From Catajapyx aquilonaris (Eukaryota), in contig KZ537974.1 of assembly GCA_000934665.2 (NCBI GenBank), positions 1 through 64,000 on the forward strand: a stretch of 64,000 nt of DNA. The letters run 5' to 3'. Under the pieces are notes generated by a model. The model was not told where the DNA came from. It worked only from the letters and a program-made list of their open reading frames with translations, and made no database searches. Below, one piece after another: positions 1-42,756 of the stretch; the first letter of the stretch is position 1, and the number at the start of each line of letters is the position of its first letter. The position numbers and the translations under genes are program-made.

Positions 1-393
1 GGGGGGGTACCATTACGACGACCCCCAACTTTATGCTGATGCCACCCCTTTAAGCAGAGTCATATGGGGCCCGCTGGAAAACAAGCTTCGTCGTGGTTTA
101 GCAGATATTTTTTGAAATGGTGTGTGTACCGACGCGACGGTTCAGTGAACTCGTACCCACTCCTTCAGCTGAAATTAAACAGGCAGGGAAATAAAACATA
201 AACATACAATATTATCTTCGGGCATTTTAATCACGATATGTCACTCTTCATGCAAAATGCGTGTAAGGCGCATATTTGTTGAACCGGCTTGGAATGATTT
301 CAGGGAGTAATCCCGGACACAACTTAAGCCTGCAGCCATATGTGACGGGCTGCAAAACAGCGACGTCACATTGCAGAACATATTTCTGACACC

Positions 394-438
394 CATGTGT
401 ATTCGGTACAGGACCAGCCTCTGTACCGAGTACACATG
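394..438. repeat. Short strong hairpin (18-bp stem, 9-nt loop)
   Basis: CATGTGTATTCGGTACAG (394-411) pairs with CTGTACCGAGTACACATG (421-438); the single non-Watson-Crick position is a G-U wobble on the + strand. Confidence 0.9.
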
Positions 439-3400
439 CAGATGGAAAAAAAGGGACATGTGGTTACCATATGCCAGCGTGGTTTGTGGCGATGTCCATT
501 TTGCTCTGGTCCCGCTTTGCGAGATAAAGGCATTAGAGGAGGGGTTGTTTACAATTTTACATTACTCGCTCGTTAATTTTTATTATTTGCGCGGGCAAGA
601 GCGACAGGGGTTTCAGCGATATGCGGGCCATGTTTTTTGGCGTATTCGCTCTCCGGATCCTAGGTGTCCCCACCTCTGCTGGCACCGGGATTTACTACTC
701 TATCGTGAGCTGTTAAGCTCAGCCATTATCTATAAATTTAATTTTTGTAACGAGCGAGCATAAACAATGCGCGCTACATCATTAGCTTAATGCCTGGACC
801 ATCGTGTTCAGTTTTTTTCTTCTTCTTTTTTTTTCCTGCGCATTCCAGCGGGGGCTATAGAGTGCGTATGTATATGTGGGACCGGGGCTCGTCAGGGTGA
901 TTGGTCGCAGGGACAAGGGAAAATGAGTCCCCCGCAAATGACACTGGTCGGATTGTCCCCAGCTCCTGCTGTCCACTTTGACTCCCAAATTTCGCTGCCA
1001 TCTCTCCCGTGAATCGCCACGGCCCTAACCTGATCTGCGACCATGTGACACGATTATTGTTTCGTGTCGGGTGGAACTACGGCCGGTGTACAAATTGGGG
1101 CACCCAAATTTGGCTCCGGTATCATCCAATTAGGAGTGGGGAATGTGTATTTGCGGTAGGTGTACTGTTTAGGTTGATCGATGTCGATAATGTGATGTCT
1201 AATTTTTGGACTTGCAATTGCACGGATGAAGTGCGGTTTAGTGAATGAAACGGTGGCCACTGCGAATTTCATTTGGCAGGTTAGGGCACGTGCTGTAAGA
1301 AGCAATTGGGTTACCCGTGGAAAAGGACTTTCTGGTGCAGTTGTGTTTTTAGGTGTTTCAGTGCCTAAGTTTTAAGTACAGTACGCTGCCGCTAGCAATT
1401 TTTAATCACAGTGGATTATCATGGCTCTCAATTTACCTAGACCTAAATACCAGAGTATGCCGTTATGCACGCTCTACCGTAAGAAAAGGCTTTCACTTGC
1501 AGCTGTGTTTATAATGGAAATTGACCAGCTTTAATGTTGGAATATGAATAACGTAAACGTGGTAAAAGCAACAAGCACACAGTCACCTACCGAATATTTT
1601 CCAGCCGCAGAAAGTAGCTTGTACTATACAGTTAACACCTTTTGCTAACACATGCTCGACTCTGGAAGGCTTTATAATATTTTAAACTGCTAATACGGCT
1701 TAGGGAGAACACTTTGTAATTACAATTTCAGATCCCTTAGTCTTTAATAAACTTCATGAAGTCCTTTCAAAGTAAATCTCGGCGCCCTGCTGTTACGTAA
1801 CCTTTGAAGTATTCGGTTGTAGGCACTTTTCCGAGTAGGGAGAATTTAAACAGACACCTTGCTTCTACATAAGTGTAGAGTGGGTTAGAGCCAGCAAAAG
1901 ATCACAAGAAACTCTTGAAATTCTGAGAGCTTTTCTCCAACATACGTCTAGGACACACCACAGGATATCCCGCCATGCTCTGAGACCTAAGGTATAGAGA
2001 TGATGCGAGTAACGCTATACAGTTCCGCTGCCTACACAGTACACAATCATACTAAAATCTGCTGAAAGATTAGATTAAGCCAGCACTCATCACAAAAGAG
2101 AAACTCGAGTGAAATTAGGCGCGCAGAAAGAGAAAGGTCTCATAGAATTCGGCACATCCGACAAGAAATACATATTTACATTGTAGGAGTAGCACTGGGG
2201 GATCGTTTATTATGCATTGCGGCCGGATGAAAGTGGAAGCATGCGACCTCGGAAGGCTCAGATTTTCTCATGAATCGCGTCCCTCTGTCTTAGACTTGAG
2301 TCGGGGGGCGCAATGTGGGCATAAGCCAATATCCAGGATTGAATTCCAAGAGGCAGCATCTTGGACGTAAAAGTGGGACGCCACCCAGGCAGTTGTTTTC
2401 ATTTCAACCTACGCCTTCTCAGGGGGACGGGGAAAAAAACTGTCATGAAGACGGACGTCCGGCAAGTGAGAAGTGATTGCAAACTCAGTTTGATTACGTA
2501 CGGAACGAACGGAGCTGAAAAGAAAATCAGGAAGATGTTGGTTCAGCGTTCATGAAATGTCAATTCGTATTTTTTTTATGTAGAGAACTATAGCTAAATT
2601 GTAATTTGCGTCATGATATATTTGTACATGAAAAGTGGAACTTAACGTTCCCTCTCTGCGCTCCATATATCTCCCGGGGCAGTGTTCCCGTAATTTATTC
2701 TTGGAGGGGGTTGGCCCGGATTTATTTCCGGAGCTCCAAAGTTGAAAAATCCGCCCCTACAACTGCAATTCGCCGAATAATTTCATTTGGCCCGCACCAA
2801 CTGTAGTGGTAGATCTGTAAAGAAGTGGACACGATTTGAAAATGCTTTGATAATCGTATTTGAAAAGCTCCACTCTGATTACACCGTAAACGGTCCATGC
2901 TGCTGTTTGGGAAGGTATCAGCCGCCAATGTGGGTAGAGAAGAGGAGCGGGGGGAAAAAAATGGCAACCGCTTTATTAAATGTTTGTAAAGCGTAGCTGC
3001 CAGGTAATGGGGATGGATGTGAACTTCACTCATTGGATTCGCAGGGAACGGCCTTTGTGATGACACGATCCGTAAGTAATGTCGGATTACCAGCATATGC
3101 TTCAAAGGATTACTGATTAGATCCAGGAATAATTTTGATTTATAGATGGGCTAATTATCTGCGATGAATCCAATTAGAGTTGTAATTGGACCCGGGTTTT
3201 TTTTATATAGAGGGGTTTGCGCGACATCAAAAAACCGCGATCAAAACGTAGCCAAGTTTCGCACGGTTTTTTGCATTTGGATGCAACAACATTTCCCACA
3301 AAATGCGGCTGCAGCACTTTTGGAGCCGTATCATTCTTGTTCTTATTTTCTAAGTTGGTCCGGATCATCTAAAGTTGTTATCTTGTAGAATTATGGGGCT

Positions 3401-5411
3401 CCACTTCTATAGTCGAGAGAGTGGGAATTTGCTGGGGGGAAAAAAGAAGCTCGCGATATTAAGTATTCGGAGCACAGCCAAGTGTGTAAAGCGATACGAG
3501 GTGCTTTTCTAAGCCCGGTTGTAAAGGTAGTTCGCACACTTTTTGGGCGTCGTTAGTGGAATGGGAGGAAGTATTGTTTCGAAGATTGCGTTCTCTTCAG
3601 GGAGTGTTACGGCACGGTTATTGTGTGGTATCTTCTCTGCGCAGTTGGAGCCGGATTATATTTGAATTTGGTCACACGTTCCAATAACTAGAATCGTTCT
3701 TGGGATTGGGCACAGTGAACTGGCAATTAGTTAAAAAAAATCCTGGGGGTGCACGTTAAATTGATTATTTACGATTGAGCGCCGGATAGAGATAACTGCG
3801 ATATTGCAATCTTAGCAGCATAAATCGCGAACAAATGGCGTAATTGCAACGCCGACTGTACATTATTTCGGGAGTCCATCAACCAAATCTGTGGATGTCC
3901 ACTGCCGATAATTGTAGTGTAAATCCTCACGCATCATTACAGTGACAAATTGGATTCATTGTTGAAGTCTGGTAATTTATGTTCAGAATATGAAGCATGC
4001 AGAATACGAGTTCTCCGTGGGGATGCAATGTTTTTGTATGATCACCATACTGCACATTATGGGATTTTCTGCTTGCTGAAGCCTGCATTGTATACCGTAT
4101 TGCTTCATCTGTATTGACCCAGTTTGCGTGTCTCTTTGTTGCTGCACAGGACCATTTGCATCCTAAATCCGGGTCAAGGAGGTCAATACAGTGGGATGTG
4201 CTTTAGTCAATTACAGTGGTCATAACATGGTGCAATGTTTCATGAGCAGGTGCCCATAACTTTACATGATTTAGATGCCTGTGCACATCCCGGTCTCATA
4301 TTTGGCAAGGACGTAGTTGACGCAATTTGCATGCACCGTCACTCGGCGTTTGTTAATGCAACGTAGTTTCCGGGTGTGGATGTGCAGAAAAGGTGCTTAA
4401 GAGGTCGGTCCTCCCTTAATTTATGGATAGCATGTCGCCTGGAGAAGGAGGGAAAGAAACTGCGCTAGTCTTTGCTTGTTTATATAGTCTTACAAAGCGG
4501 TTGACTTGGATACAGAGTAGATGGGTGAGTAACCTTTGGCCCCTTTCCTTCTCCTGCCTGTGGCCAGTTTCATGAGCGGTTTTTGCATAACATGAGCGGC
4601 ATTAAAGTGCTGTACATGCATAGAAAAGTATAGTGCATAATGATGTTTTGAGAATGTGACCATCCTATACCGGATGTCTCATGGCGCTCTCAGGTGAGCA
4701 CCCTCTGCAACATTCCTCGGCAGGTGATATGATCTGAAGGTATAGTAGGAGTGTCCGGGGGCTGGTCCTAGCTACTGTACAATGCCCTTGGAGTAGGCCT
4801 ATAGCACAGTACATAATCGCACGGCAAAGGTTTCCGAACGATGTTACAGGCAATATAGTGCATTGGAGGAAAGAAAACGTTTTCATGAAACTGCGACCTA
4901 ATTTTTGCCAATTGCATTGCGAAATTTTGTTGACGCACTTCACGAAACCACATTCTGCTTCCTTTCTTTCAATTTTCAGCTCCGATTTGCATCCACCACA
5001 TCCTCCGGCTATAGCAAGAAAAGCGGAAACACTAATCATGTATCCAATAGGGAGTATGCACCACCCTTTCAGCCGGAAAAATTGGCTTTATCCTCCGAAA
5101 TACATTTTTTGATTTAATCATGCGAAAGAAGAAAGGGAAAAGAGACCTCGGTTGTTATCTCACTGGCACGGGATTCCCAGAACACTGCTTTTATGTCTTG
5201 CGTGTGCGCTGGGACGTTACTTAATATGAAGAATTAGTCCAGATCTCTCCACCCACTTCCTTTTCTCTCTACCCCCTTCTTCTATATACCACCAGGACCA
5301 GCCTAGAGTTGAAAGAGAAAAGAAAACCAGGCTGGAACCGAGGGGATGTTGCGAGGTCGCCTCTTTTGTCTTGCAAAATGGGCGACTCGCCCGAAGCAAT
5401 TTCGGCCAGCG

Positions 5412-5415
<4 letters not shown>

Positions 5416-5483
<68 letters not shown>
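5416..5483 (+). repeat. (GA)34 microsatellite
   Basis: Uninterrupted GA run; it explains the ERERER and SLSLSL ORFs. Confidence 0.98.
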
Positions 5484-5484
<1 letters not shown>

Positions 5485-5759
5485 GCGGCCTCCCCCCTCG
5501 CCCCCTTCCAAAAACTTAAGCCCGCCTTATGACGTGAATTAGTGTACGAGTTGTGCCCCCTCCAGGGCTTATTTACGGCTTCCGCATACTTCTTGGCGCC
5601 TGTCTTTTCTATTAATTAAGTGAGCATCATCGCAATACCAGTAGGGCGAAGAAAAGAAGTGTGGTTTAAGTGCCGTTTCCAGTATTGTTGAGGGTGTGCC
5701 AGCTCTAGTTGGCTCAAAAAAGTCGGTGTATGTTGGGTTGCATCACATCAGGATGGAAA

Positions 5760-5853
5760 GTAATCCTGAATGATTTGTTTGATAATTTTTAAATATTTTA
5801 ACGAACAATAGCCAAAAACCGTATAGATGTCCTATATATAGGACGCTATGCAT
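5760..5853 (-). repeat. Dispersed repeat copy 1 with palindromic core GTCCTATATATAGGAC (5829-5844)
   Basis: The reverse complement (ATGCATAGCGTCCTATATATAGGACA...AAATATTTAAAAATTA) resembles 60881-60975. Confidence 0.65.
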
Positions 5854-8800
5854 GTATTGAGCGATTCTGTAAAATTGCATGGTCCAACTAGGTCCAGTGG
5901 AAAAGTGCTGCGTTTACATGATCCCAGCAGCTGATGGTGGTCCGAGACTAAAGATGACGGCGTTCAAAAATGGCCAGAAACGACGTTACGTAAATGGACT
6001 GCCCCATAACGCTTAGTAGTCGAGTCCCTCTATCGCTTGCCGCGACTTGAGGTGCAAGGTAGCGGAGGTAATAAGGGATAGTGCACTGATCCCCACAAAA
6101 TCCTAGCTTAATGCCCAGGTTAGGCCAGGAGATCCCCTACTTTTGTCCGGTCCGGCGAGTGTGTGGCTTAAGGCAAAATGGGGAAGCCTTTTTCTTATAC
6201 TTTTTTCCGTTTTTTTTTAGAGGGGGCCGATTTGCATTCGGGCAGATTGAATCGTTCGGAAGCCGATGCGAGCTATTTGGGGGGGTCTTCTTAAGGAGAT
6301 TGGCCCATTAGGTAAACTTTGCAGGCGACTGGACTAAAATGCAGCTGGCGTGGCCTTTAGACTCGTTGCGTGTGCCTCAAATGCTAACCGGATTAACAGG
6401 AGGTTCGGGAAGCCCCCCGGGATTTCTGGAAGGGGGGTGAAGGAACAGGAGGGGGGGGCTTGAAAATTGTCGGGTTGGAACGACGACGACGCTGTCTTCT
6501 GGCGCGTCAAGTGCTTAAGGGGGGTTTAACGTGATGAATTATAATTATGTCTGTAGTGTAAGCCACGATATTCTGCAAAAAAAAAAAAACCCGTTGAAAA
6601 AGGAGGCAGATATTTCTTCTTGGCAAGTCGACTTTTGAGAGAAGTCGTGGGAAAGAATAAATGTTTGCAAGGCGGTCCTCATCTTCTCTTAATGAGACCG
6701 TTAGTGGCGTAGTGTCCGCTATTGGAAAGTGGCGTAAGTATCGGAGGATCGATCAGTCCGGCTTCAACTGACTAGGAGTCTAGAGTAAACAAGCGACAAT
6801 CCCCTTAAGAATTTTTTAGGTGCTAAAATGGGGATTTTTACCTCGACCTTAGCGTTTATTAACGGCACGTTTTCAGAAAGGGGAGTGACAGGGCTGACAG
6901 GGCTGACGGGCGTTCATTATGTGAGCCACGCCCGCCCTCGCATTTTTTTTTTTTTTTTTTTACAATTCTGAAAGGAAAATGGGGCGTCCAACCGCGCCAT
7001 AGAGTTGGCGTACAGTAATGTTTGCTAATTAGTGTTTACGGCTTGATTGACGAATTTATCTGGCGAATGTTTATTAACAGGACGTCAAATAATAATGCGC
7101 GGTAATAACTCCGCGAATCGAGCGCCATACAAATGTGATTAGTTAATTTGAATCTGCAAAATGCTGATAGCTTTGTTGCGTGCCGCGAAGGTGTAATGAG
7201 GACATGGATATATCGGTTTGTGGCGTGCAGTTTCAGGACATTTTTTGGAGTGCCTCTGGTGAGGCTGATTTTGCGATATCTGCATCAGATTGTGGCCATA
7301 GGAACGTAATATGTACCTAAAAGTGGCTTTGGTGGGACCATGTGGTTTGTGGCTGCTAGATGTCGCCACACATCTTGGATTACAAACGTGCTGCCATCTA
7401 CCGCAATTTTTTATTTCAAAGGAGACGTTCCTCTCTAAGGTGTTAAATTCTTGGCCCGTACTACACAACCCCCGTTTTTTTGTGGGGAAGAGGCGGTCAT
7501 TTTCACTGGATGGAAGGCGACCAAGCGGTAAGGTTCCAGCTCTTTTGCTCCAGAAGCCTCTTGAGATTGCGCCTCAGTGTAGCCTTTATCTCCCGAGGAG
7601 GAGCCGGCAGGCAACTCCTTATTTCCAGCCTGGTTCAATCGCTGAGAACTTTGGAAGCCTCAAAGTTTTCACAACCGCACTCCAGCAGGAGCTGTAGCCA
7701 TGGCTTCTTTTTTTTTCTTCTTCTACCCCATCTTCTGCCTTACCCTCTTCTTTTCTTTTCTTCTTACGCGTCCGCAGGCAAACGAGAGCGACAACGACGC
7801 TCTAAAAGTTTCAGGATCGCATGACTGAATTAATGAGATGAAAAGCGCATACATTATAATCATTTTGACGAATTTATGAACCACGCTGCGGACTTATCTT
7901 TCAACCTTGTGGCTGTTTTTAATCTTCAGGGCAAGGAAGAATCCTTAAAGACGATCGATAACAACAGCACTTGGTATTAAATTACCTCATTTTTTTTTGG
8001 AGCCATCCTGTAAACTAGTCAGGAACAGAATATTCCTTCTGGACTAGCAGGGAGCTAATATTGGTTTCGTTTTGGGAGCACGTCAGTTGCAGTAGATCTC
8101 AAGCATTAATTAACCAATAGGCACATGTTCGGATAGATGCATGGGTCGGCCTGCTATTCTAGGGGCAGTTTTCCGGGGAAAAAATGACAACGACCATTAG
8201 TAAATTATGAGCAAATTATGAGTTTCAGAGTGGACCCCTAATTATTGCATCCATGATTCCGAGCCAAGCTTGAAATGCGAGCAAAGTGCAGAAAGTGCGA
8301 CCACTCCACAAGCCACAAATATTGCCGCTCTCGAGCGTTATTGGTCTGGAAAAACGCGGCCTATAATTCTCCCTAGATGTGCTCCATAGACCGCGTGGAC
8401 CACCACCGGCTAAATAATACGCCCTCGAAATTGCCCAACCAAGAAGAGAGATGGTTTCGAAGAGGAAGATTTCTCCCCCTCCACCAAAAGACCATGAGTT
8501 ACGTGAGTTGCGTGAATCAGGCGATTTTGGGGAATAACCCACCAGGGAGACTTGTTAGCGAAATAACTAGCATATCTGCGTACTAAAACCGGTACAAGCC
8601 ATGTTCCTTAAAAAAAAAAGGTTGTTGTTACTATAGGGTGGTTGGCTGCAGTGATTTGGCAGTCCAAGGACTTGGAAGTCGAAAGTTGTCCGAGTCTGCT
8701 ATTGGTCCAGCTGGACTTAAACCCAAGCGCCGCTGTTGCTGACCGTAGTTTTCCCAGCGCCTTTACTGGAGGCCCTCGGAGAGAAGTACTGCTTTGCTTG

Positions 8801-9185
8801 AGATGATTTCCTGGAAGTTTGGAGCTAGAGTGGTGTTTAAGGTGAAGAACTCCAGGGAGGTGTTCCCTGCGTTTAAAAAAAAAAAAATGTAACTTCCATT
8901 CTTGGCGGGAGGGCCAAAAGGGTATGACCTAGGATTTGAGGTGGGAATCAAAATGAAGCTAAACTCGACAATGATGTCAGTTGGCGTCATAAAGGGCCTT
9001 TCATGCTATGCGGGGTTTATTGCACGGAATTGCAGCCATTTGGGGGTCGATGGCGTCGGACGGCATATGATTTCGCATATTAGCACCTGTCCTGGCATGT
9101 GAAATCGCAAATAATGTCTTGTAAATATTTAAGTAAAACTGCTATCCGCTTAACATTTGTGCCGCAAAAAGGTGTGTTGTATCAT

Positions 9186-9224
9186 TAAATTAATTGTATG
9201 CCTTTTGTGTCTTTACAGGTAAGG
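9186..9224 (+). promoter_or_regulatory. Candidate recursive splice site (ratchet point): 3' acceptor abutting a regenerated 5' donor
   Basis: TAAATTAATTGTATGCCTTTTGTGTCTTTACAG|GTAAGG: branch-like TAAT, pyrimidine tract, CAG (AG 9217-9218), then immediately GTAAG (9219-9223). This matches the YAG|GTRAG architecture of Drosophila recursive splice sites. Confidence 0.6.
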
Positions 9225-9249
9225 ATCTCTGGGGATTGAAGCAGTGAAG
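9219..9249 (+). other. Candidate cryptic RS-exon (31 nt; 78 nt with the alternative donor)
   Basis: Downstream donors AAG|GTAGGC at 9250 and GAG|GTAACG at 9297. The 31-nt segment ends in purine-rich GAAGCAGTGAAG, which is ESE-like. Confidence 0.45.
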
Positions 9250-9339
9250 GTAGGCCTGTGCCTTATTTGGTATGCAAATGTCATTTTGGTTGTGAGGTAA
9301 CGTGCGTCGCACAATGATTCGATCGAATCCAAATGTGCG

Positions 9340-9360
9340 ATTTATTTATTTATTTATTTA
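9340..9360 (+). repeat. (ATTT)5 microsatellite
   Basis: Direct tetranucleotide run. Confidence 0.9.
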
Positions 9361-12300
9361 ATGTCCCGTGAGGGAGAGACCTTTCCAATCAGAGGAGGCA
9401 AAGAAGAAAAATAAAAATGTGCGACTTTACTGGTAAATTTTACCACAGCTTGCTTATTAGCACGAACCTGTAAGTTCCATTTTTTTTTGCGTGTTATATC
9501 CGACCGGCTTGCATTGATTCTTGCAGTACCAGTGCTTTGTCTGCAGAAAAGCTGTTGAGCGACTCGGTGACAATATTTGGAGCTCCATGTACCAACCTGA
9601 AAGAAAACTTATTGGAAAACTCGAGGCCCGAAGGACGGAACCCGGTTAATAGAATTACTCCCCTGCGCCATTTTAAAGATGATTCACAGTCCTTTTAGCT
9701 GCTCGCCCAAGGCTTTTGTAGTCCCAGTCACGGAGCCATTGTTTCTCCCCATCTACACGCCCCCCCCTCAGATTTCTCAGCGTCAAAATCCTCCTTTGCA
9801 GTAATTAGATCCAAGTTCTTCAACTAGTATTTTTCACAGTTACTCTCTTTTTTTGTTGGTTTGGTTGGTTGGTTCTCTCTGTTGAGTTTTCCCAGGAACA
9901 AGCCTCCGGAAAGTTTATTTTTTGCACGCCAAACTATGAGAGGAAGGATGATTGGCACATCCATAGCGCAAGCTCACTAATGGAGTAGCCTTTCTCAGAC
10001 CACGTTTTGGACCGGGATTAATTATTACCCAACTCTACAGTGTGCTGTACTTTGCTAACTAATGCCAGTAACGTAATTTTCCTAACAATTAAAAGGGCCT
10101 CGGTACCGCTTATGTAACTCTGGTGTAATTATTGGGTTACGCAGGCAGCTACTTGTGGCGGAGTGGAGATGCCTTGAGAGCATTCTGCCTTGGGATATGC
10201 CTGTCTTGTTAATGAACATTGGTCGGTTAGGTGTGTGGTTTTAATTTTACCTCACAGTGTACAGTGTGCCCGGAACAATGTTTCAGACAAACGTTGTTAT
10301 CAGCACCAAGGTTCCTTTTTCTACACCACCTGTTTTACAAAGCAGCTTTGTGATTCAGCGAATCAGTAGAGGTCCCTGTATACCTGAAATTGACGTGTAA
10401 AAATTGACCGGATGTATTTTTTTTTGAGGCCGCAGACTTGGCAGGATGCAGTTGGGAGACGCATTTTTCAGAGGGCGCTCATGTTAGCCGCCACCATTAA
10501 TCACCACTCATGAAACCGACTCCAATTAACCGTAGCTGGCCTGGCACCGCCGGTTGTTACATCGTTATTAAAATGCATGCGACTGTGGTCGAAGTTAGGA
10601 TTCGGCTGGCTTGATGGCCCAGCAGTGTAAAATTTAGGAGATGCGTATACCTTCCTTTTAAAAACGCGGCGTAAATGGATGCTATATGGGCTTTTTATGG
10701 CGCAGATGGTTGTATTGGAGCGGCCATAAATGGAGCGTAAGAGAATCTGGCGGTTCATCTTTGCAGTTTGGCGTGGTACTGACATTGGTCACCAAGAGCT
10801 GGGTCGGAGAAAATCTGTACACATATCAAAAATGTTAAAATGTGCCAGAAATGTCCATAACTTGCAACCGGAAAGCATTTGCTGTAACTTGTGGATTTTT
10901 TTTCATGGGGATGGTAAAAAGTGAGGCAGTTCGTACTAAATATTGACAAAAATGTCAGCGTTGCGCACTTTTGCCTCGAACAACGAGTATATTTGCGCAA
11001 ATGTGTTTCTCTTGAAAATGAAAGTCGAGATTGCGCTTTTGCACTAGATGCTTGTGTTCCTCTTTTTTTTTCGTTTCGCTTCTGTTTTTTTTCTTTGTGA
11101 CGGAAGAAAATAAGTGAGGTTGACGCTTACTGCGGAAGCGGGTTTGTTCTCTGGAAAACGACCGCAGTGAAGACGAAGGCGTGAATTTACTAGAGGACGG
11201 TTTGTGGAGTCCAGAGACACATGTGCGCGCCGTTTATTTTGGCTGGCAGTCATAAACAAACGACGCCTTCCCCTGTATACAAGGCCTGCTGGTTAGGCAC
11301 TTTGAGTCTTTGCTGCGTTGCTCAGAACCAGAAATATTTTCGTGTTCCAGATTTGGCCATAATTAATATGTCGTGCCATATGTTGGGTGTGGTAAACAAG
11401 TTAGTCCTATTTGTGCAGCCGTAATAATTCGTGCTAGAATTTGCGCAATATTAAAGTGACACAATTAGTACTGGAACACGGTGATTTTTTTTTTGCTACA
11501 ACTGACAGGCATCGACTAAAGTTCATGATTTGATTCAGAAATGAGTATATGGTCATTTGCATTTTAGTATCAGTAGGCTATACGTGGGTCAGGTCTGTGT
11601 ACTTATACTACACCTGCTGAAATGTTACTCCACCGAATTCATCAGGAGAGGATAATGCTTTGAATGTGACGTGTTGAATAAAGCCCATTTCATTTCGCGA
11701 AGCCATCCCATTGTTACCTATTTCGATCCTAGTTTTTTTCTCTGTCGAACTGCAGTGAAAGGCTACTGAGGACCGCTGAAAAAAATGTCATTTGACTTCC
11801 ACTGGTGCACACCATTACGTGCGACGGAAATTGAGCCGGCTAAGGGGTGCTTTCTGTAATAAGTGCGTTCGAATGAAATTGTCCAGCTGGAAATGTAGTT
11901 TTTGGATCATGTCCATCCAGTTTTTTTTTTTTTTTTGTAAAAAAAAATCAGTCCCATTTATTGTAAGAATGAAATATAACTACGGGAATGTCCCAAATGA
12001 CAATGGCAGATACACAATTAAGGTGCACTGCGCTAACTGTAAATCAAACCTACACCTGTATGTGCCAACATGAAACTGCTTGTTTTGTTTGGAGGGGTAG
12101 GGGCACGAATCATCCGCATATATAGCAGTGCCCGTAGGCAGCCAAAAAACCGGAATCACTGGGCACGGAAGCGTCGCACCGCAGCAGGAATGAATTGGGG
12201 CATAAATTTCAAAATGCATGCAAACTTGGACAAAAAAAAGCTGATTTTCGTAATGAAAACGCGGGGCGGTGAGGACTGTTTGGCAAATGAGAAACGGGAA

Positions 12301-13647
12301 CGTAGCTGATCGTACATTCATGTTTCCAGAGAACGGATCGTGTTTCTGGCTGCTCTGGAACGGATCGATTAGCGAATCAAAGCGGTGGACGAGACGAGAT
12401 GGGATGGGATAGATGGCGCTTTGTTACTGCCTCTCTCAGTTTGTTTGCTCCAAAACCGTCGGCGACAGGGATTCCACCCCCCTGAAGCCGTCAAAAAAAT
12501 AGTAGTACCAAGAGAGAGGGCCATTTGTGTGTGCACAGGGTTGGAGACACCCTGAAATCGCTGGTTATTTCTGAAAAAAAAGTAGTTATGTCGCCTCCCC
12601 CATGTAAGACCGGTGGGACATTCAACGGGAATGTTATGCTACTCTATTCCGAGGAAACAGGCAGGGATGATGGGAAATCAATCCACCTGCCGCAGAGTCC
12701 GGATTCTTTTTGCCATTTTTGGAGCATATTGGATGTGTTATTTTCTTATACTGCCCGCAAAAATGGCGACGAGTTTTTTTTCGATGCCACCCCGGGGCGA
12801 GAAGATTGTTTTGATATGTCACCGTCAAAATCTGAAATCTGTTAAAATTGGGCCGGGTTTATGCTACATGCGGTGTGATTTATTATCCGCCCAACGCACG
12901 TCTCCTTTTGTTTTCGAGCAACCGAGGCTCTAATCGCCAACAATGGTTGGTAATTTTGTGAAGTTTAATTGATAGGCCTGTGGAGTACTGTAAAGGGTCG
13001 ATGAAATTTTTTTTCGCTTGTGTGGATGAGTTAATCCGACATAATATGCATGTGTATTATGATGATATTGTGGGGCATAATAATCCATCATGGAATATTA
13101 GGATGTTGCTATACGTTAGGAATATTATTGCATGCGTCTGTAGAACTTTTGGTGTAAACAATGAAAATAATGGATAGCTTTTTTTATTATTATTTTGTTT
13201 GAGCAAAATCGTGGCTTGTAGAAACTTTGTGAGCCCCTGTGTATCAGGCTGCGTGTTGAACAAGAGAGGCTGAAGTGTTGCGGTAGAGAAACAGGATAAC
13301 CCGCGGATGTCTTTTGGATACTGTACTTGAAGTATTTAAGAGCAGGATTACAGTGCAGAGCACCATTCCTTTGTTGTATGCCTCAAGGTAATGTTACAAC
13401 AGTTGCTGTAATTATAATCGTATGCATTTTAAGTCGTGCGGTTTGCTTCTTAATTTGCAAAGTGCTTTGATAATCACAGTATGAAAACGTCTGGGTAATT
13501 ACGTGCAAAGGCTTGTGATTTTCACTCCGGGTTGAATATAGTGCAACTTTCCGAAGCAAAAAAAAAACATCCAATACTTGCCGGCATGGCAATTAGAACT
13601 GTCACGAATTGAGCAAGGTTTATCAGCGGAAGCAAATGCAGTTTTAA

Positions 13648-13693
13648 AAAATAATTTTCTGCCGCATTCTGATTATAAAATAATTTTCTGCCG
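13648..13693 (+). repeat. Short direct duplication AAAATAATTTTCTGCCG x2 (period 29)
   Basis: Identical 17-mers at 13648-13664 and 13677-13693. Confidence 0.85.
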
Positions 13694-14582
13694 AGGATTC
13701 AAAACATGATTTGAAGCCAGCATTAACAAAAAATTGAATCCATAAGAGGTGACAAATGCTATTATTAATCAGCTAATCACGTAAATACTGTACGTGACAT
13801 GCACTTGCAAAATTTTTTTAAGTAGGGGAAAAAAGGGCGTCAGCTTGGCATAGTCACATCACGAAGTCCATGTATACCGTAGGCAGCAGGGATGATAGGA
13901 GAACAGCTTTGGTGGAAATTGATGTGCCGGCGGGAATAATCCAGACAAGCCCAGGAATCAGTGTCAGGTCTCAAGACGTACAGAGAGCTCCTCTTTCCCT
14001 CCGCATTAAAAAAAAAAAAAAACGAGGAAGCGGAATTATGGAGTCTGAATTTGTAATTACAAGAGAAGGAGGGAGGTGGACCCCGTATCGAGTTTGCGGA
14101 TCAACAAGGCGTCATCGTGCACCCTGTGTTTTCCGGCTTGATTAATAAAACAATCTGGCCTGCATTTGCCTCGCACAGATTCCTTATGCAAAGTGGGCCT
14201 TGGCCCGGGGGGGTCCAAAAGGAGCCTCGAAGTAGGAGATCCGGGAAGAGGGGGGGGGAGGGTTTCAATGCGGTTCATTTGGATTAGGTATCCGGGCGGG
14301 CTCCGGATGATGGAAAGGGGCAGTTATCTCCGGGGAGAGAGTCTTGTCCGTCCCTAATCCACTTTGGACCGGGGCGCTGGGGTTCAATGGGGTCGTTTTC
14401 CTATCCCGCAGGGAAACTTTAGTAGTGTCCGCCTGCTAGAGGTTAATGACTACCGCCTCCCCAGCTATACAGCCTCGACCCGCACTACTAGCCTTCTATT
14501 ACAACGGAATACGTGACGAGATGGGTTTTATGAATATTGTTCTCACCTCCTGCGCGAGTGTGCCCCCCTCTATTAAGCTGTA

Positions 14583-14620
14583 CAGGGTGAGTCGTTATTG
14601 TGCAGTTTGGGGACACCCTG
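14583..14620. mobile_element. Minimal 38-bp Tc1/mariner-type MITE-like element
   Basis: TA|CAGGGTG...CACCCTG|TA: terminal inverted repeats with TA on both sides, the target-site duplication of Tc1/mariner elements. Confidence 0.5.
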
Positions 14621-17600
14621 TATACTGAAGGGAATGGGCGTTTTAGCAAAAATGTTTTTATGTACACAGACCGCAGAGGGGGTAGAAAAGGCTTTTGAAT
14701 AAGCCGACTGGAGAAAAGTGTGCTTTTTGGAACGAGTGGGTGTGGCAAGTTGGGACACATTTCTAGTCTTCTGAGAGAATTTTTTTTCTCTTCTTCCTCC
14801 TTTTCCTGACGGGGCTGGGAGGGGTTAAAAGTAAGCAGATGAGTAATGGCGAACGCGATCGAAGCGCACTCATTGCGTCTCTTTTTGGCAGTAGGGGCGC
14901 CATTTGAATGCTAAGCAGATGAAATTTTTGGAATTAAAGCGGGTTGGAAAGGGTATTTAAAAGGAGATCGCTGGTGACGACCGGCGCCGCTTTTCTACGA
15001 CCAAAAGATGCAAAGAGCCTATTCGCAACTTTTTTATACACGGGCGCTGATATCATTGCAGATGCAAAAAAAAATTGAGAAGAATGTCGGCTGGGGCTAT
15101 AGTTGAAACTTTCTTTTTAAAAAATCCACGGAATCTGCGGAATTTTGGGCATGCCGACCAGTGCTCAATCGATGAAATTTTTCGCGTCCTAATCACACTC
15201 GCTTATTAATATCAGTTTCTCCCACTCTGGTTGCAATCGTCCCCCGCTCGCAGTCAGACCTGATAAAGTGATGTAAGTTTGCTGGGGTGGAAACGTATGT
15301 TAGACTGCCTCTGCCACTTGGCGCCATCCATCACTAATCAAAGGATTTAATGAATCACGGCTGATAGGCACGCTTCTAGGGTGGGCCATCCGTTTCGCTC
15401 TGCCGCGCTTTGTTCCGCTGACGTGAATGTCTAGGGGTGGGACGGCGGAATCTTAACATTTATTTCAAGGAAAACCTCACAGCCTGGTTGTTTTTACTTG
15501 GGGAGCCAAGGAACTGGCCGATGAAGACGCATTGCTTAGGGAAATTCTTGGAAAGAGTAGACCCACAATAGGGTTGACATAAATCATGTGTAGGTTGTTC
15601 CCAACCGAAAGTTTCAAAAAAAAAATGCTTTATGCTGAAAATTGACCTGGATCCTGCATCCTGTAACACTTCAATGACAGCGCAGGCATTTTTATTGGCG
15701 CGTAATTTTTTATCGTCTCCAGTCAATACATCACTTTTGACGCGGCTGTGTGGCAAACATAGTAGATGGCCATGGGACCAACTGGTGTTCATATTTGGAC
15801 ACGATCCAAAGACGTCTTCTCTCCGTAAATCTTGGCCTGCTCAAACACTGTACAGTATTATTAACACCCTTCATTCATACGGCCTTTATCATTTTCCAGG
15901 GAGACAAAGCGTTCGGTGTCATATTTCGCTGGGAAGTTATTTCAATATTTGGCGTAACCCGGCTGCAACAGGTGGTTAAATTCTGTGGAAGTTTCGTGCA
16001 AGCTCATTTTTGTCATTCCTTCTCTCGCCGACCAAGTTTTCCGTAACTTTCTCTCTAAGACGTCGTAGCTGGATTCCTGGGCCTGTCCTATCGCGTCTTC
16101 TTGGCAGAATATGGCGGTGCTTGAAAGCAAACTGGTTCCTTCCGAGAGGAAAGTGGAGGGTGGGGCGTAGCTCTTCTCCGACTCATTTCCTATGCATAGA
16201 ACCCTAGGGATTAGCCACAGTCCATTTTGGGATGTTTAGGCAAATGAGGTCTCCTGTTACACACACACTTCGTCTTGGTGTAGTGTTAGTTAGGCTCTTA
16301 TCAAGGCGAAAGTGAGGAGGTCCAGGGAATTGGAATTAAGGCTCCTGGGAGGGTGTGACGCAAAGGACTGGAAATCAAGGATGTCGCCGACTGCCAGCTC
16401 CGTTTTCACACCCTTTTCGCGTCGCGGTTGGTTGGTGGCGGGTCCATTCAAACGGTGTGCGAAATTGTGCATCTCCTGTCCTTTGTTAAACCACAGAAGC
16501 GGCAGGTGAGATGCTTCATTTGTGCGCAAAGTCGCGTGGGATTAGGGTTTTAGCACTATCACGATATGGGGAGCCGCGTAAATATTCGTTATAAGTGTAG
16601 GGTCGCCTGGGGCCTTAATGGGATAAAAATTATAATTGTAGCTAAAGTTTGCGCTTAGCGTGCATCGAAAGATGGCTTCTGGGCTGATTATGCGGCGGTA
16701 TAATTAACGCGGAATGGTCCGGATGATCCCAATGTTCATTTCCAGGAAATATATAGGAATTTAGGCGCAGCAGCTGCATTCGTAGGCGCAGATTAGGGAG
16801 TGCTTATACAGTCAAATCGGACCACAATGCGGCGTGACAGTATCAAACACTAATATTAGTCATACGGCCATAATAATTGTGTTTGTTGGTGGTGGTGTTT
16901 TGGCAGAACCGCGGTTTGTACGTTATTAATGGGATTGTCATAATTAGAAGAATATAAGGTTAAATCAGTGTACCCGAACAGTATAAACATTTCATATCCA
17001 TATTTAATCATACTTGCAATAACAGCGGGTGACCATAAATAGCGGGATACTGCAACCAGGGTTTAATTAAATTTATAGTATTCACTGGCAGCTGATCCTG
17101 GTTGTCCAACCAGCCGAAGTCTAGCTACTGGCGGTGATGAGAATGGCCTCCTTCGTATAGCTAACACATCCGAGTGGGGCATGAAAAGAGGTCCGGATGA
17201 GGACGGAACAGGAAGTGGGCATTCAGAATGGAGGAAGTTGGGCGAAATTGAGCGGGAAAAGCCGGTTAGGAAAAGCGTCGTTCTGGCCCGTGGCCAAAAC
17301 GGAGCCGAAGCACGTGGTATCTGAGTGGCGATGAAGGTAATAATTGTTCCTCCCCCACGGCGGGAGTAGGTCTTAATTGCAGCTTGCAGGCACTGGTGCA
17401 TGCCACTTCCTCCAGATTTCCGCCCTTGCGACTTGGACCCCCTCGTGCTGCTTGTGACAGCCTTCGTTTTCCCAAACCAGGAGCCTTTCTGATAGACGCT
17501 GAAAAGGAGGCTCCTTTGTTCCTCCTACTCCCTGTCATGTGCAACCTCCACTTGCCCTACCCTCAAAAAAATATTGAGGTTCCTTATACACCACAGGCCG

Positions 17601-20218
17601 GGTTTTATTAGAATACAAGCCTTTTTTTTACTAGAAGTTTGCCAAAACAGCCTATGTGATGTATTATGACATGGGCTGTGGCGAAATTTGTACAGGAGTT
17701 GGCAAAATCGGCGGGTATTGTTTTGGGGAGCTAAATCCGGGGTTGGGTGAAAATGTTTACATTATGAATTTTAATTAAATTTATCATTGTCGACGTGGCA
17801 GATAAACAGAATAATGTTATCGTGTATAAGCGTGTAATGTAGCAGGTAGGTGCGGTATATTGACGCACATCATTAGAATAATTGGATAGGGGTCCGCAAA
17901 AGGGGGCGGTTTTGATTTCAAAGTTAGGTTAGCTTTAGAGTGGCCTTCAATTGGTTACTTTGGAATTTTCATGGGGGATGGTTAATGAGGCTTGAAGTGT
18001 CCGCCGATATGGGTTTGCTACAATAACAATTTTGGCATTGTCCGAGCTTATTGATATGACAGGCAGCTTAATCACACATTTTACAGGGTTGCCTGTGTTG
18101 CCATGCATTATGGTGTCAGTTTTTGGAGGGCATGTACACTGGATGTTCCTGCATGCCTTTAGTCTGATATTTTAATATTGCAATATGTATTACTGTATAC
18201 TTGAGAGAGAAATGACCCTTGAAGTCTTAGCCTCTTTCCCATCCTGCTACTTCACGATCCATCAATACGAGTTACTACCTAATAAAACTGATATCAATCG
18301 CCAATATTAGCGTCAGAGTGTGGCCGAGTCACAGATTACAAAGAGTTAGTTGTATTGCTATTCAAAAATGTGCCATAATTGGCACGTATCCCATAGGGAC
18401 AAAACCCCACACGCGTAATAAACCAAAAAATGAAAATAATTGGCAGGTAGGGATTGTGCACGCGTTATCTCGATTTGTGTGCCACCATGTTTTGTTCCAA
18501 ATCGGTTGGCATGACCGGATGACAGCACGTGTTTATTTTAATTTCGGCTCGCTATTTTTACAATCGATCTTTTGAGAGTTCACTACACTAACACTCCTTT
18601 ATTGCGCCAGTAAAACTGCGGAAGAAAAAAAGGTCAGCACGTTAACCGCTTCTGTGCATTTGTCAGGCAATTTAATCCAGACAGCCGCACTTTTCTTGCG
18701 TCGCGTGCGATATTATGTACCGGCGATTTATCCAGTTCATCGGTACCCGGAGCTTTACCTGCAAGTGCGGCTTGTCATGCAGGAGAGAGATATCGGCCCC
18801 TGTGGGAAAGTGGTCTTGGGCTGCTCGCGTGCAAGGCTTCATTTTCCAGCCTGGCTGCTCCGATGCATCTTAGGGCAAAGAAATCGGCCTCAGTGGTGTT
18901 AATTCTGGCGAGGAGAGTTAGTCGGTTTTATATGCGAAGTGAGGCATGTCCCTTCGCGCCCCTCGCGCCCCTTTTCCTTTCTTCTTCATTTAAAGGCCCG
19001 CATGAAATTCGGTAGGCCTACTGCACTCGGGTTGAGCCAGACGCCATCGGAATTTAAAATCTGTTTCTACTCAGCTAACTAACGGGGATTGGGGGCGGTT
19101 TGGGAGCTTTCCTCTACCATGTCTCACATTTTAATGCGTCCGAATCATATAAAAAAAGAGGAGGAAGAATTGCAGGTTGTAAGGGGTGACAGTAAAGATG
19201 AGGATGGTGACCCTGGAGACAACCGGACCTGCGTAAAACCCTGACCTACAATATCTTGCTGAACTGGATGTTTGTGCGTGGGTTTGCTCATAAGTAATGC
19301 AGTGTGTAGTTTGGTCTGTTCAATCGTGTGTTATTTTACTGGGATGAGTTTGCATCGTACGGAAATTAATAATTTGATGGAAGAATATTAGTTTGCCTGG
19401 AGGATACATGCTGCTTGTGAAAACTGCACGAGTTTAATTAAAAACTACCTACTTTGAATTCATGAGCCATGACGGTTTTTAAATGATCTTGTAGGCCAGG
19501 TGTGTTTTCAGAAGCAGAACTGTACTGGAATAAGTAGGCAGCAGAAAATCTGGGATCAGTTTGAAACTGGCAGCACTACCTCTGCACCGCAGACCTTTGC
19601 CCATACGCATAAATTGCGTCATGCTGCACAGCGGTAATTTTACCTAGCTAAAGTACTGATGGTTGTATATGGCCAGGGCACCGAAACATTTTCCCCCCAC
19701 ATCAAATACGTGACCTAATTCAGAACTCAAAGAATTTTACGCAGTGATGTATTGAAAACAACGCAACAAAGCATGACTCGCCATTGTAAATTATTTATCG
19801 TATAATTTTAATGCTGTTCTCCATTATGTAGGGCTCATCCATAAGGCAGTGACTGGAAATGTAAAAAAATCGTATTAATTATTCAGCTTTGGACGACATA
19901 AAAATTCAGTTTTGAAACCGCTTTGTAGAGTGTAACCTGGCGCATGCCTATAGTGCTGGGCTGGGCCCTATATTATAGTAGCCTCCGGGAAGGCCGAAAC
20001 TTTCCGCATTAATCTATGGCGTTAAGTTTCCAAGGGGGCAATTCGCAGTAGCGCGAACCTGTTGTACCCCTTGGTCTTGCACTTGTAGCACTCCAGATCT
20101 CTTCCTCGTCGAACATAATAACCTCTGATGCGGCATTAAACGCGTGTTTTGCCATGAATTAGGGCGGCTGCAGCGTGGACCTCGCAGAGATGGGTACCTT
20201 GGCAGCAGTTGTGGCTGA

Positions 20219-20242
20219 CAGCAGCAGCAGCAGCAGCAGCAG
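20219..20242 (+). repeat. (CAG)8 trinucleotide repeat
   Basis: Eight perfect CAG units in a GC-rich block. Confidence 0.95.
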
Positions 20243-23200
20243 CCGGGGCGTCGGCAGCGGCGGGGTCGATACTAAGCTCCTTTGCGTATACGGGTGAAAA
20301 GTGGGCTAAGTAAGGGGAAGTGGAGAGAAGCCGCGGATGGGACGAATCCCGTGGGAAAAGTGCCCGATCCTCTCCAGCAGGAAGGCAAAGTGGACCGAAG
20401 GAGCCCGGCCAAGAAGACGTTGGGGCAGTCCCAATTCGGACATAAGTCCACACTCGGAAACAAAAGGAACCCCTCCCTCTGATTGGTGCCACCTGCCCAC
20501 CCACCCTCCACAACACGCGAGTGCCAAATGTTGTTTCCGTCCTGCCCCTTGTTTGCCTTCTGCCAAAGTGCTCTCGGCTTTCTATCCGCAACTGCAAATT
20601 GCGTTATCAACTCTCCCACCCCCCCACAGGCCCTCACCCACCGGAAGAATAGCCCTTTCCGTTACAAGTACCGGTTTATGTCCGGCAAGTCTGTCGTTGC
20701 TTCCCGGCTATGCTTTGTGGCTGTAAAATCCGGTTATTGTCGGCGCGCCCTAATTGAATTTCAATGGCGTGTCTGCCTTTTCTCTGCGGGCTATGTCATT
20801 CGTGGCATTGAAACAAAAAAATTACGGAAGTTGGCCTGGAATATAAGGCTGGTTTTTTTTTTTTTGGGGGGGGGGGATTAGCTGGGGGTATCTGTGGTGG
20901 AAGGGTGACCTAGTGGTCGTCGTTGACTTTGGGTCACATACACCAATATTCGTAAATGTGGATTCGGATTCCCGCGTTCTTGGCATTCGGTATCATACGG
21001 AACACCTTGTAATTTACACCTACTGCAGTTAGTGGTCTGACACTGTATATTGCTGTCAGGATGCTAATGTTTGTTTACAGAGCCACTCGCGACACCAGCA
21101 GGAAGCGAAGCTCCCATTTCTGTCCCATTTGCTGCAAGTTCAGATTGTAGAGGAAGTCATAACATAACTAACCTACTCCTTCACTGTAAGCCCTCTGATT
21201 CTATAACAAGGCCTAGTAACTAGTCCAGCCAAGTTTGTTGCCTCATTGGTCATGGAAGTTTGGGAATTGGAAGGATTCTGAGCTCTGTGCAGTGTCACTT
21301 TGGATAGAATTTGGAAGGAATTCGGGATGCGTGATATTCTCACGAAAGATGCAGGGTTGCGTGATGTTGCCAGATTCTTGCAATAAAATCGAACGACACT
21401 GAAGCGACATTGTTGCAAATAGAGCACAACTGCATCATCGATCGGTCGACGCAAGATGGCACAGCTCGAAAAGCAGTCGTAAATATATGGCCATATATAT
21501 AGGTTCTGGTCTTGGAAAACGGATGGCATGAAGGAACGAATGACCCGACTAAGTCTGGTCGGGAATCCGAGGGGGCCCCCAGCAGCCGAAGACAAAACGA
21601 GGATCAATAATGAGGCTAATTGTTCGGGGTGTCTCATCCCGCTTGTCGTTGACGTCGAAGCTTTGGGGAAGAAAAAGGGAAAGCTGCAGCATCAATCTTG
21701 GAAGGAAGGACCAGAGAAAAGAGTGAGTCGGAAAGGGAATTGAGGTCGTTTGCCGTTGTGAAGGAACCAAATTAACCCGCTCGCTTTTGCGGGATCTGGC
21801 CCGGATTTTACCCCCTCCCCCACCCTCCACCCCCCCCCTGGAGGCGAAATCGCTCCAGGGAGAATTGGCTAGGGAGAAATGCCCCTGTTCATTATACAGT
21901 ATATCTAGAGGATTGTAGAGGCGATTTGCCAGCCAGCGACGATGGCGTTTGACTGATGCTGGCAGATGCTGCCGCCGCCTACTTTGTCTTATCCCCCTCT
22001 AACCATTTTTTTCGTTTTATCCTGGAGAAAAAAAAAATCTTCTCGCTTATTCTACCGACACGGAATAATGATGACAGATGCTTCGCCGTGTGCCGCTACA
22101 AAACCCGGGGCAGATTGGATTGTTTGTCATTGGGAGGAGATGATGAAAAGTGAGCAGACGCCTCTTGTTATTGAATTGCCTCTGGTTCGGCTCAGAAAAT
22201 ATGGCGGAAGAAGGTGGAACGACTGTGATTTCTTTCCGGGGAATGAGGATGGAATTTGTGGATGATGGTGTGCGGAGTTGCACCCAAACTAATGAATTTT
22301 GCAGCGGGACAGGATCGGCGCCCCCAGACTTGTTTGTTTGTGCCAAAATTCTAGGACCGAGATTCAACACGCATTGGAGATAGTGTCGTAGAGCATCGTG
22401 GGGGCGATTAAGGCGAGATTGGGCACGCTTCGAGGATTGATCGGAGAGTGGCTGGAACAAGTGGGTCCAATTTACAATAAAATAACTAAAAAAAAATAAA
22501 CATCTGCACTCCTATATGTCATACCCATTTGTGCAATTGTACTTAATTTACTCAAAAAATTATATTATAAAAAATTACACTCGGGCATACTTGGGTCCAG
22601 TTTTGACTCGTTTGAAATAGGTCCATATATGCAGATGAGCGGTGCCTAAATCCTCATTACTCTTGCGGCATATGCTTTCCGATCACGTCTCGTGGAAGCA
22701 CGCTGGATGAAGAGCAGAAGTTGAAAAAAAAGGCTGGTAATCGAATTTTGCGCCTATTTGAGTGCGGATTATATGCCGGCATTTGGCGGCGTCAAATTGC
22801 AAATATGAGCGGGGGTTGCGAAAACTCCCCGCAGGGCCCCCCCGGACAATCAACGCACGTTTACCACTCGCGTCACGGGGATTTTTCCCACCCATCCCAC
22901 TCCCTTCCCCCTCTCGTCCCAACCGAAATATTAATTACGTGCGTGTTCTCGTCCCATGTGTCATATCGTGTACATCTGCACCCGTACGAATTACTGTGGT
23001 GCCGTTTGATGTATTGTTGATTTCCGAAAGAGCCCGCAGCGCATAACTGCGGAATACCGCTCTGAATTTTGTGGGGTTTGCAGGTGATGAATCTTCGAAC
23101 TTTGTTGACCAAATATCGGAATTTGATGTGCGCATAAACAATGTGGAACTACCTTTAACCGCAGTGCATCTTTCACCCCCCTATAGACGGAGGAATATTT

Positions 23201-26200
23201 TGGGACGGTTCGGAGCTATTGGCGTAGATGGCGTTGGGTGGTGACCACCTGCCTCCGGTTATATAAGATGGCCAGGTGCATGCCCATGGCTACAATGGAG
23301 CCAATTGGGATGTTGTGGCTTGAGGGGAGCTTTGGCGCACCCGGAGCGTCCTCTCATGCATCTGCAAGTCTTTGGGGCCCGGAGGAGAAGAGCCGGTGAA
23401 ATAGGCTTACTGGGAAGGATTGGGGAGTTGCTATGGGCTCGTAGCTAGCTTTCAGTCAGAATTTCAGGCCTCGTGAACGAATGCCGGCGGTGTTCGGGCC
23501 ATAGTTACGGTTAGTTTTCATAAAAATCGATGGCGAATTTAATATCGCACAAAAGTTCGGATTAAATATCTGGTGGTTGCTTCAGTTTATTGATGTTAAA
23601 TTGTGCTCAGCCCGAGCCAAGAACTTGTTATATCCCAGTATAGCTCGTATGATTTTGTACTATAGACAAGTGTTTATAACCAATATGAGTATGCTGCGTA
23701 AATCGGCAGAGATGTGTCGCAGGACAAGTAACGTGAGACCCCGCCGACGTGTATCCCAGGTCAGGGCACCGTCGCAAAGTAAATGCGAGTATGAAGCGGA
23801 GGAAGGTGAGAGGTGGGTGGTAATGTAGGAGGACGTGCGTGGTTTATGGCGGCTCCGGTTCTGCCCGGATTATCAGCGGAGAATTCGCAACTTGAACCTT
23901 GATGAATGGAGACGTAATCCTGAGGCTGAAGCAAGTGAGGTAGGAGAGTGCACTTTGCTGTCACGCTCCGAGCGACTCTCCTTAGAACTCCAAAGGACAG
24001 CATAGCCCGATTCTAATGAGCTAGACGTGCTAAAGTACAGATGACTTCTCCGACGCCTCTCACCAACCAGGGAGGATTTTTTGCAGGGATGGTTTTAAAA
24101 CGGGAGATCTTCGTTGCTGTAGTGTTAGTTAAGTTGGTGATCACGGACTTTATAGGTGTTAATCAGGAGGGGAGTGGAATCAAATGGATATGCAAATGAG
24201 ATGCTTTAAGGGGGAGAGTGAGAAAAAAAGGAGAGAAATGCCAGCTCGTTCTACGGCCATCCTATTCTGGAGCGAAAGGCTTCAACCACGTCTCATTATA
24301 CAGCTGTACTAAAATTAATTAAATCTAGGTAGGCAGCTCGGAGACTGAGCTATACGGTGTCGGTGGGAATGAAGGTGGCAGGGTTATAATTAAACCCATT
24401 TGGGCTCATCGACCCAGATTTCAGATTGACAAGAGTAATGACAACGTTGTCTCCAACTTTGCTCGGTTTCTTGTTCACCAGGGGGTTTCTATCTCGTGGG
24501 GTCCAAGAAGAGCCAGGAAATGTGCTTTCTATGATTGATTCTTCGGGGTATAGCCTGGCTGGCATGGCAGGTAATGACCACAGCCGGATTTATGGGCCCT
24601 TTTTTTGTAACTCGACTAATACTATTTCGTGTATGCACTTATTTCACATATATAGTGTTACAGAGGCTGAATCTGATAGTTAATTTGTTACGCAGCACTT
24701 TGTGTGCTGACTGTAGGACCATATAGAGGCTTGGGTGTTTCGTGGATGCTCCGTTAAGGACTCGTTGCAGCATGAATATTCGGGAAGCAAGCCCTCCTGA
24801 ATGTGGTTGCAATTTGAGTGTGCCGTTGTTCTGCGGTTCAGTTGCCGTCCAGGCCGGTGCAAGCACAGTATGCGAGTATGAGGGGGACTAGGGTTAGCCG
24901 GTGGCCAGCTTTTGGCCTGTGCCTCGACATCATTAGAGGCCTCTACCAAATTGATGAGGGTATGTCTCCGGTTTCAAAGGGCGTCCAGAATAGGGGTAAA
25001 AAGGCCCCTCCATGTGATAATGCTTGATTCATTAGCCATAAATGAATCCGGCCCGAATCCACAATACCCCTGGTTGATAAATGCGGAGGTAACGGTCGGG
25101 GTGGGGCGGGGAAAGATTTTATGGGGAGGCCCAGGAGGCAATCGGTATTCAAGGAACGGCTATAATAAGGCTCATACGCAACGAATGGTGTGCGCAGGGT
25201 AATCGGTAACAAAGGAGGTAGACCAAAATTTGCTGTTGTGCCAAAGGCTATTGGGAGCATCGATCTTCATTCCTGTCCTGTTTACACCAGCATGGCGATC
25301 ACTTTTATCTGCTGCATTTTCTAGGAATTCTCCAGCGTTCTATGAACTAGCTCTGTCATTAGCCGTGATGCAGTGAGCACTAAATAAAGGGGCCCAGATT
25401 TACTGCAAGTCGGACTCAATTTGAGCCATTTCACGGCTCCTTCGCTGATTGCTATAGAGCCATTTACTTTGAAATTAGGGAGCAAAACCGCTCAATTTGA
25501 GTAAGTAGCTCTAAATCGGATAGAGGGGGAATGTCGGTCAAAATGGAGTTCGCAACTTGAGTGAATTGCACTATTTTTTTAAAAGTAGAGTGTTAGAGAG
25601 GTTTTTTCCAACGATGTTGTCAGTGAGGGCAGCCATCAAGATATTTATCTGCTCTTGATCTCTTATGAGCCATGATATCCTAATCTTCATATGAAACGAG
25701 CAAGAAATGGCCTAATGTACCGAGAATCTAACTCGAAGTGTTTTTAGACGAATCCGTAGGGGTCCTTATATATAGTTCAGGGACGAAAAGGGATTTTTCT
25801 TTCTCAAGGGCTTCGCTAGGCTTAGAATGAACATTATCTCGAAGGCGAATGTTGCGGAAAGAAATTCACGTTTCTTGTCGGAAGTACCTAGGAAGTAAGT
25901 TAGTAGCTGGTAGCGAAAACGAACAAATTCCATGTTGCAGTCCATCACCGAAGCCTTGCACCAGTTTCTCGGAAGCTATGTGTTCAGGTTCTCAGGACAA
26001 GATGTTTATGGTGCCGTTGTATTGCAAGTGTTTTTAGCTCGTTGGACTCCAGGCTAATACAAGTTGGTGTACAATGCAGTGCAGTAACTTAACTGAAAAA
26101 ATACGTTAGCTACATGCAAGCTATAGGAGCGTGTTGTCCAAGAAGCAGGGTTTCAACTTGCTGTAAATTCTAGAGGATTACTGCCAGCGTTAAGAAGCTT

Positions 26201-26442
26201 CTCGACGTCGAAAATAATTTGTGGAAAGTTCCCAGGAGAGGGTCCCAACTCTAGGATTTCCTCCGGAAAAAAGAAAGTTGCGGCCTATACCGGACTGGAG
26301 AGCGACTGGAATCCGGGGCAAGAAAAGCCGGGGCCCTGAGAAACTTTTCTGTCGCGAGAACTATAAATAAACAACGGTGCTTTTGGCCCTACGACATGGA
26401 GCCCCAGATAGATTCGGGCCAGGTGTTATTGCTCTATTTTTA

Positions 26443-42729: not shown

Positions 42730-42756
42730 GGGGGGGGGGGGNGGGGGGGGGGGGGG
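42730..42756 (+). repeat. Poly-G run containing an ambiguous base (N at 42742)
   Basis: 27-nt G homopolymer with one N; possible sequencing or assembly uncertainty. Confidence 0.95.

Follow-up and report, generated by a model that had tools for sequence, protein, structure and literature searches.

To our knowledge, nearly all ratchet points mapped so far have been found in flies. Recursive splicing by way of RS-exons was reportedly described in vertebrates by Sibley et al. in 2015, and the logic of that system is like the one considered here: exon definition comes first, and the regenerated donor then competes with the donor of the exon, in long introns of neural genes. For mammals, the account given in PMC8605326 is of only nine fully suppressed intronic recursive sites that have been definitively noted.

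The fly system is described in far greater numbers. As given in 10.1101/006163, of 197 ratchet points in flies, 196 carry the dinucleotide TT at positions −5/−6, vs 43.76% of all fly introns; the recursive introns reported there span 11–133 kb, and the segments removed from them measure 2.6–63.6 kb, with a mean of 18 kb. A high-confidence recursive site is reported in 63% of fly introns longer than 40 kb (PMC6110457). In the fly model as PMC8605326 presents it, the RS-exon is ∼50 nt long, poorly conserved, and out-of-frame, and its donor is weaker than the ratchet donor. According to the same source, mutation of the ratchet donor forces inclusion of the RS-exon, and flies have <50 expressed RS-exons vs >500 intronic ratchet points. 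Our literature search found a sole case in a non-dipteran insect, a predicted site in the locust. This site lies in the 230-kb intron 2 of NPF1, where PMC8892266 reports a recursive site that was predicted by motif and supported by U2AF65 immunoprecipitation. Here, we compare these systems with a candidate site in a window of 64,000 nucleotides, by which we mean the whole stretch of DNA that was analyzed.

An acceptor abutting a donor at 9218/9219

The + strand junction at 9218/9219 reads ccttttgtgtctttaCAG/GTAAGG, which in the letters of the window is gccttttgtgtctttacag/gtaagg and in a longer form attaattgtatgccttttgtgtctttaCAG/GTAAGGatc. This arrangement fits the YAG/GTRAG abutment of an acceptor and a donor (CAG/GTAAGG, 9216–9224). 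The first-pass annotation had placed CAG at 9216–9218, GT at 9219–9220, and further donors 31 and 78 nt downstream, and a re-reading of the sequence bore out these coordinates. We found two more donors downstream of the junction, which brings the features of the site to the following.

9190..9194, + strand: candidate branch-point motif TTAAT (YTRAY), by motif match, with its A at 9193, 25 nt 5′ of the acceptor AG
9200..9218, + strand: pyrimidine tract and acceptor gccttttgtgtctttaCAG, the tract at 9200–9215 and CAG at 9216–9218
9219..9224, + strand: candidate regenerated (ratchet-point) donor GTAAGG, 5/6 against GTRAGT; CAG/GTAAGG matches 8/9 in its genomic context
9219..9249, + strand: shortest candidate cryptic RS-exon, 31 nt; donor aag/GTAGGC with GT at 9250, 7/9 of the consensus
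From 9219, + strand: candidate RS-exon of 51 nt; donor ttg/GTATGC with GT at 9270; absent from the first-pass annotation
From 9219, + strand: candidate RS-exon of 78 nt; donor gag/GTAACG with GT at 9297, 6/9
9219..9301, + strand: candidate RS-exon of 83 nt; donor aac/GTGCGT with GT at 9302, 7/9; absent from the first-pass annotation

Upstream of the acceptor, 14 of the 20 positions from −23 to −4 are pyrimidines; the longest run is 6, and the tract is interrupted by three G and several A. The acceptor carries TT at −6/−5 (...tctttacag). Only one YTRAY motif falls in the zone from −50 to −15, and no AG occurs in 9194–9216, that is, from the TTAAT motif to the acceptor. In the DNA runs, the depth over 9186–9302 is that of a single copy, and no variant is listed there.

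Downstream of the junction, the ratchet donor (8/9) outscores the donors at 31 nt (7/9), 78 nt (6/9), and 83 nt (7/9). Of the + strand positions, 15.8% have one or more donors scoring at least 7/9 at 20–100 nt downstream, and 1.5% have two or more. Each of the candidate exons of 31, 51, and 78 nt meets a stop in all three frames, so that a CDS including such an exon would give a truncated protein.

Comparison with described systems and proposed reading

The site at 9218 is like the Drosophila ratchet points of Ubx, kuz, Bx, luna, and other genes in its YAG/GTRAG abutment, in the TT at −6/−5, and in the branch motif upstream. As in Drosophila, the junction is followed by a short candidate exon whose donor is weaker and in which each frame meets a stop, and the site stands in a long stretch without a recognizable exon. 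This anatomy fits that of a Drosophila-type ratchet point with a putative cryptic RS-exon. The site here, which is a prediction at the level of a motif, differs in its pyrimidine tract. When compared by eye with 47 fly motifs, the 9218 tract was poorer than most, though a few of the fly sites looked equally interrupted. The same tract is the best among the six YAG/GTRAG sites in the window.

We also compared the donor with the recursive sites tabulated for flies by Pai et al. (PMC6110457, 539 rows), among which AGGTAAGG appears 5 times, AGGTAAGT 37 times, AGGTGAGT 51 times, and AGGTAAGC 43 times. GTAAGG is a minority donor at fly sites, yet it is used. We note that three of the five GTAAGG rows, which the table shows as high-confidence, have strong tracts. 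For the fly N-cadherin genes, neither the name CadN nor two FlyBase ids for CadN and CadN2 appear in the tables of that study, which come from S2 cells, where CadN may not be expressed. In arthropod N-cadherin, ME-18, the transmembrane exon set, is reported to come last among three mutually exclusive sets (PMC2655722).

With regard to the vertebrate system, the motif style of the 9218 site, TT at −6/−5 included, was set against fly data only. The locust site is similar in that there, too, a ratchet point was predicted from its motif within a giant intron; at 9218, the giant intron is itself a candidate. The two differ in that the locust site has U2AF65 support, whereas the 9218 site is a prediction at the level of a motif.

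Our leading reading, to which we assign a probability of roughly 0.45, is that 9218/9219 may be a real Drosophila-type ratchet point within a very long + strand intron. From the DNA sequence, we infer that the + strand is transcribed, that the site is used, and in what order the steps occur. In a first step, the acceptor would be recognized by exon definition together with a weaker donor 31–83 nt downstream. In a second step, the upstream exon would be joined to 9219, which would remove the first segment of the intron and leave GTAAGG directly behind the exon. In a third step, the stronger regenerated donor would beat the donor of the cryptic exon, and the cryptic exon would be removed along with the remaining intron. 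The resulting mRNA would carry no trace of the recursive step.

If the window belongs to a sense-strand intron of >100 kb that is spliced as in flies, a true site would be far likelier than a chance one. The mediocre tract and the lack of a second good site in 64 kb count against a ratchet point. The mechanism of recursive splicing is already well described, and the 9218 site would be an additional, predicted candidate that is plausible and unproven.

Were the site real, a candidate at the level of a motif would become a recursively spliced intron outside flies, and the age of the mechanism could be better judged. On a bolder reading, which we hold to be less likely than not, a giant intron would be removed here stepwise through a cryptic poison exon, zero-length ratchet points would be ancient among insects and not peculiar to Diptera, and they would coexist with an intron base skew, G>C on the sense strand, of the opposite sign to that in Drosophila. 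A real site would further predict that, once the GTAAGG donor is mutated, the mRNA has to include an exon that contains stops.

Possible chance juxtaposition or use as a short exon

The explanation that competes most directly with a ratchet point is a chance juxtaposition, in which an acceptor-like AG happens to stand next to GTAAGG in noncoding DNA and the site is unused or contributes splicing noise. We regard this as a serious possibility, though one that falls short of even odds. According to the first-pass annotation, no other fusion in the 64 kb is of this quality, and this was upheld, as 9218 is the best acceptor–donor fusion on both strands. YAG/GTRAG occurs three times on the + strand and three times on the − strand, and only at 9218 is it preceded by at least 14 pyrimidines in 20 positions. 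Looser rules (AG/GT, at least 13/20 pyrimidines, no AG in −15 to −3, and a donor of at least 4/6) return five sites on the + strand and four on the − strand, with a 5/6 donor at 9218 only. Weaker fusions on the + strand include those at 44251 and 13387, which read ttttttttccttgtgatTAG/GTGATC and cctttgttgtatgcctcAAG/GTAATG, respectively, and both their donors and their acceptors are poorer than those at 9218.

To set these counts against expectation, we simulated 300 sequences per model, using Markov chains of order 1 and order 3 that had been fitted to the window. The bare core YAG/GTRAG was expected 3.5 times (order-1) or 2.3 times (order-3) per strand vs the three observed, and the bare core is thus at chance frequency. 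The expectation per strand (order-1/order-3) was 0.20/0.15 for the core with the pyrimidine tract, 0.16/0.11 when no upstream AG was allowed in −15 to −3, 0.05/0.033 when the YTRAY branch motif was added, and 0.013/0.007 when AGGTR was also present downstream. These expectations flatter the 9218 site in that the thresholds are the site's own values, picked post hoc. A fair expectation is therefore somewhere from ∼0.03 to 0.15 per strand. The 9218 site stands out by its combined features and not by its core. The observation is only modestly above chance, and the motif by itself is too common to prove use.

Several of these results are what a chance juxtaposition would produce. The bare core occurs as often as expected, and the core with a pyrimidine tract alone is expected in 13–19% of simulated strands. 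In addition, the best site was picked from the window, and a procedure that picks the best site per window is bound to bring chance cases to the surface. The tract, as judged by eye, is mediocre by fly standards, and a second good site is absent within 64 kb. On the other hand, adding the TT at −6/−5, the branch motif, the AG-free zone, and the two donors lowers the expectation to 0.007–0.05 per strand, though post hoc, and the context fits the type of intron in which flies often use such sites.

Sequence searches bear on the same question. No look-alike stretch of the site was found in the other genomes scanned. When the 22-nt core was searched against metagenomes, one marine scaffold (L001) matched, with no similarity beyond the 22 nt. 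We considered this scaffold as a conserved instance of the site and rejected it as a chance match with dissimilar flanks; as such, it shows that cores of this kind recur, as the chance explanation would have it.

The candidate exons downstream raise a different explanation, that the interval is a real unannotated short exon of 31–83 nt that is sometimes included. Such an exon could be a cassette in the 5′ UTR, could act as a poison exon, or could be an RS-exon that is expressed, as Ubx mI/mII are. The acceptor and the donors at 31, 51, 78, and 83 nt do make up an exon-sized unit, and flies do have expressed RS-exons, although PMC8605326 puts these at <50. We nevertheless consider a short exon unlikely. 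The stop in every frame would confine it to the role of a noncoding or poison exon, and GTAAGG is stronger than each downstream donor, an arrangement that in flies favors skipping, as reported in PMC8605326.

The 64 kb around the site

The reading of 9218/9219 as a ratchet point presupposes a long intron on the + strand, and the window as a whole is described by a single feature.

1..64000, + strand: context without a recognizable exon and with a diffuse G>C and T>A bias, from ORF, Pfam, and skew analyses

On the + strand, G exceeds C in all 32 of the 2-kb bins, and T exceeds A in 28 of them. Binning at 1 kb gives 57 of 64 bins for G>C (mean skew 0.092) and 45 of 64 for T>A (mean skew 0.031). 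A bias that holds so evenly across the window suggests one transcription unit. As reported in PMC5786239, T>A marks the coding strand generally, whereas the G/C sign varies, with G>C on the coding strand of vertebrates and C>G on that of Drosophila and the other invertebrates studied there. Because of this difference, the skew leaves the strand unsettled and is better evidence for one unit than for the + strand. If the + strand is the sense strand, then the G/C skew here has the reverse of the sign published for Drosophila introns. We presume that the window lies within a very long intron or transcription unit on the + strand.

Word counts were also compared between the two strands. The raw counts are 35 vs 65 for AATAAA and 101 vs 53 for GTRAG. 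However, AATAAA and the words resembling 5′ splice sites, branch points, and acceptors all occur at approximately the maximal-order Markov expectation on both strands, and the raw asymmetries therefore add nothing beyond the base skew, which is spread through the sequence and does not sit in particular words. Runs of G4 number 445 vs 241 between the strands.

It is very improbable that the window falls outside any + strand transcript, in intergenic DNA or a − strand unit where the motif would have no role in splicing: an exon to anchor a transcript was not found in the window among ORFs of at least 60 aa, but T>A indicates the + strand in vertebrates and invertebrates alike in the account of PMC5786239, the skew is uniform up to the end of the window, and a diffuse 9% skew across 64 kb would be hard to account for without transcription.

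The search for coding content covered all 385 stop-to-stop ORFs of at least 60 aa and gave no Pfam domain above the cut-off, a limit on length at which short exons (UTR or signal-peptide) could be missed. The only Pfam matches lay below the cut-off and consisted of low-complexity matches at the (GA)n microsatellite, plus a single weak match to Bcl-2_3. The 12 longest ORFs have nothing in Pfam, there is no long ORF of note, and an Rfam search of the window returned no family match. The longest ORF encodes 254 aa at 35379–36140 on the − strand; it belongs to no Pfam family, has no protein homologue of near its length at E ≤ 0.001, and is probably a chance ORF.

ORFs of at least 120 aa are more numerous than in order-3 Markov sequence, with 18 observed vs 9.7 expected on the + strand and 27 vs 16.4 on the − strand, for a total of 45 vs ∼26. 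This excess probably reflects patchy GC content, with patches at 20–22, 42–44, and 46–48 kb. The GC-richer patch at 20–23 kb was considered as coding sequence and rejected, as its translations are not coding-like.

Over positions 1–20000, the DNA runs X1 and X3 give full cover at single-copy level with no joints, while the run X5 gives 18-nt scraps only. A high-copy repeat occupies 4670–5407, where the depth reaches ∼3400 in X1 and ∼2000 in X3 vs ∼32 and ∼24 elsewhere, and many loose ends fall in 4670–4742. The YAG/GTGAG site at 4693 sits inside this repeat. The assembly has a single N at 42742. Tandem repeats are few overall, and the microsatellites are (GA)34 at 5416–5483, (CAG)8 at 20219–20243, (CCTC)12.5 at 48114–48163, and (TTAT)15.5 at 63271–63332.
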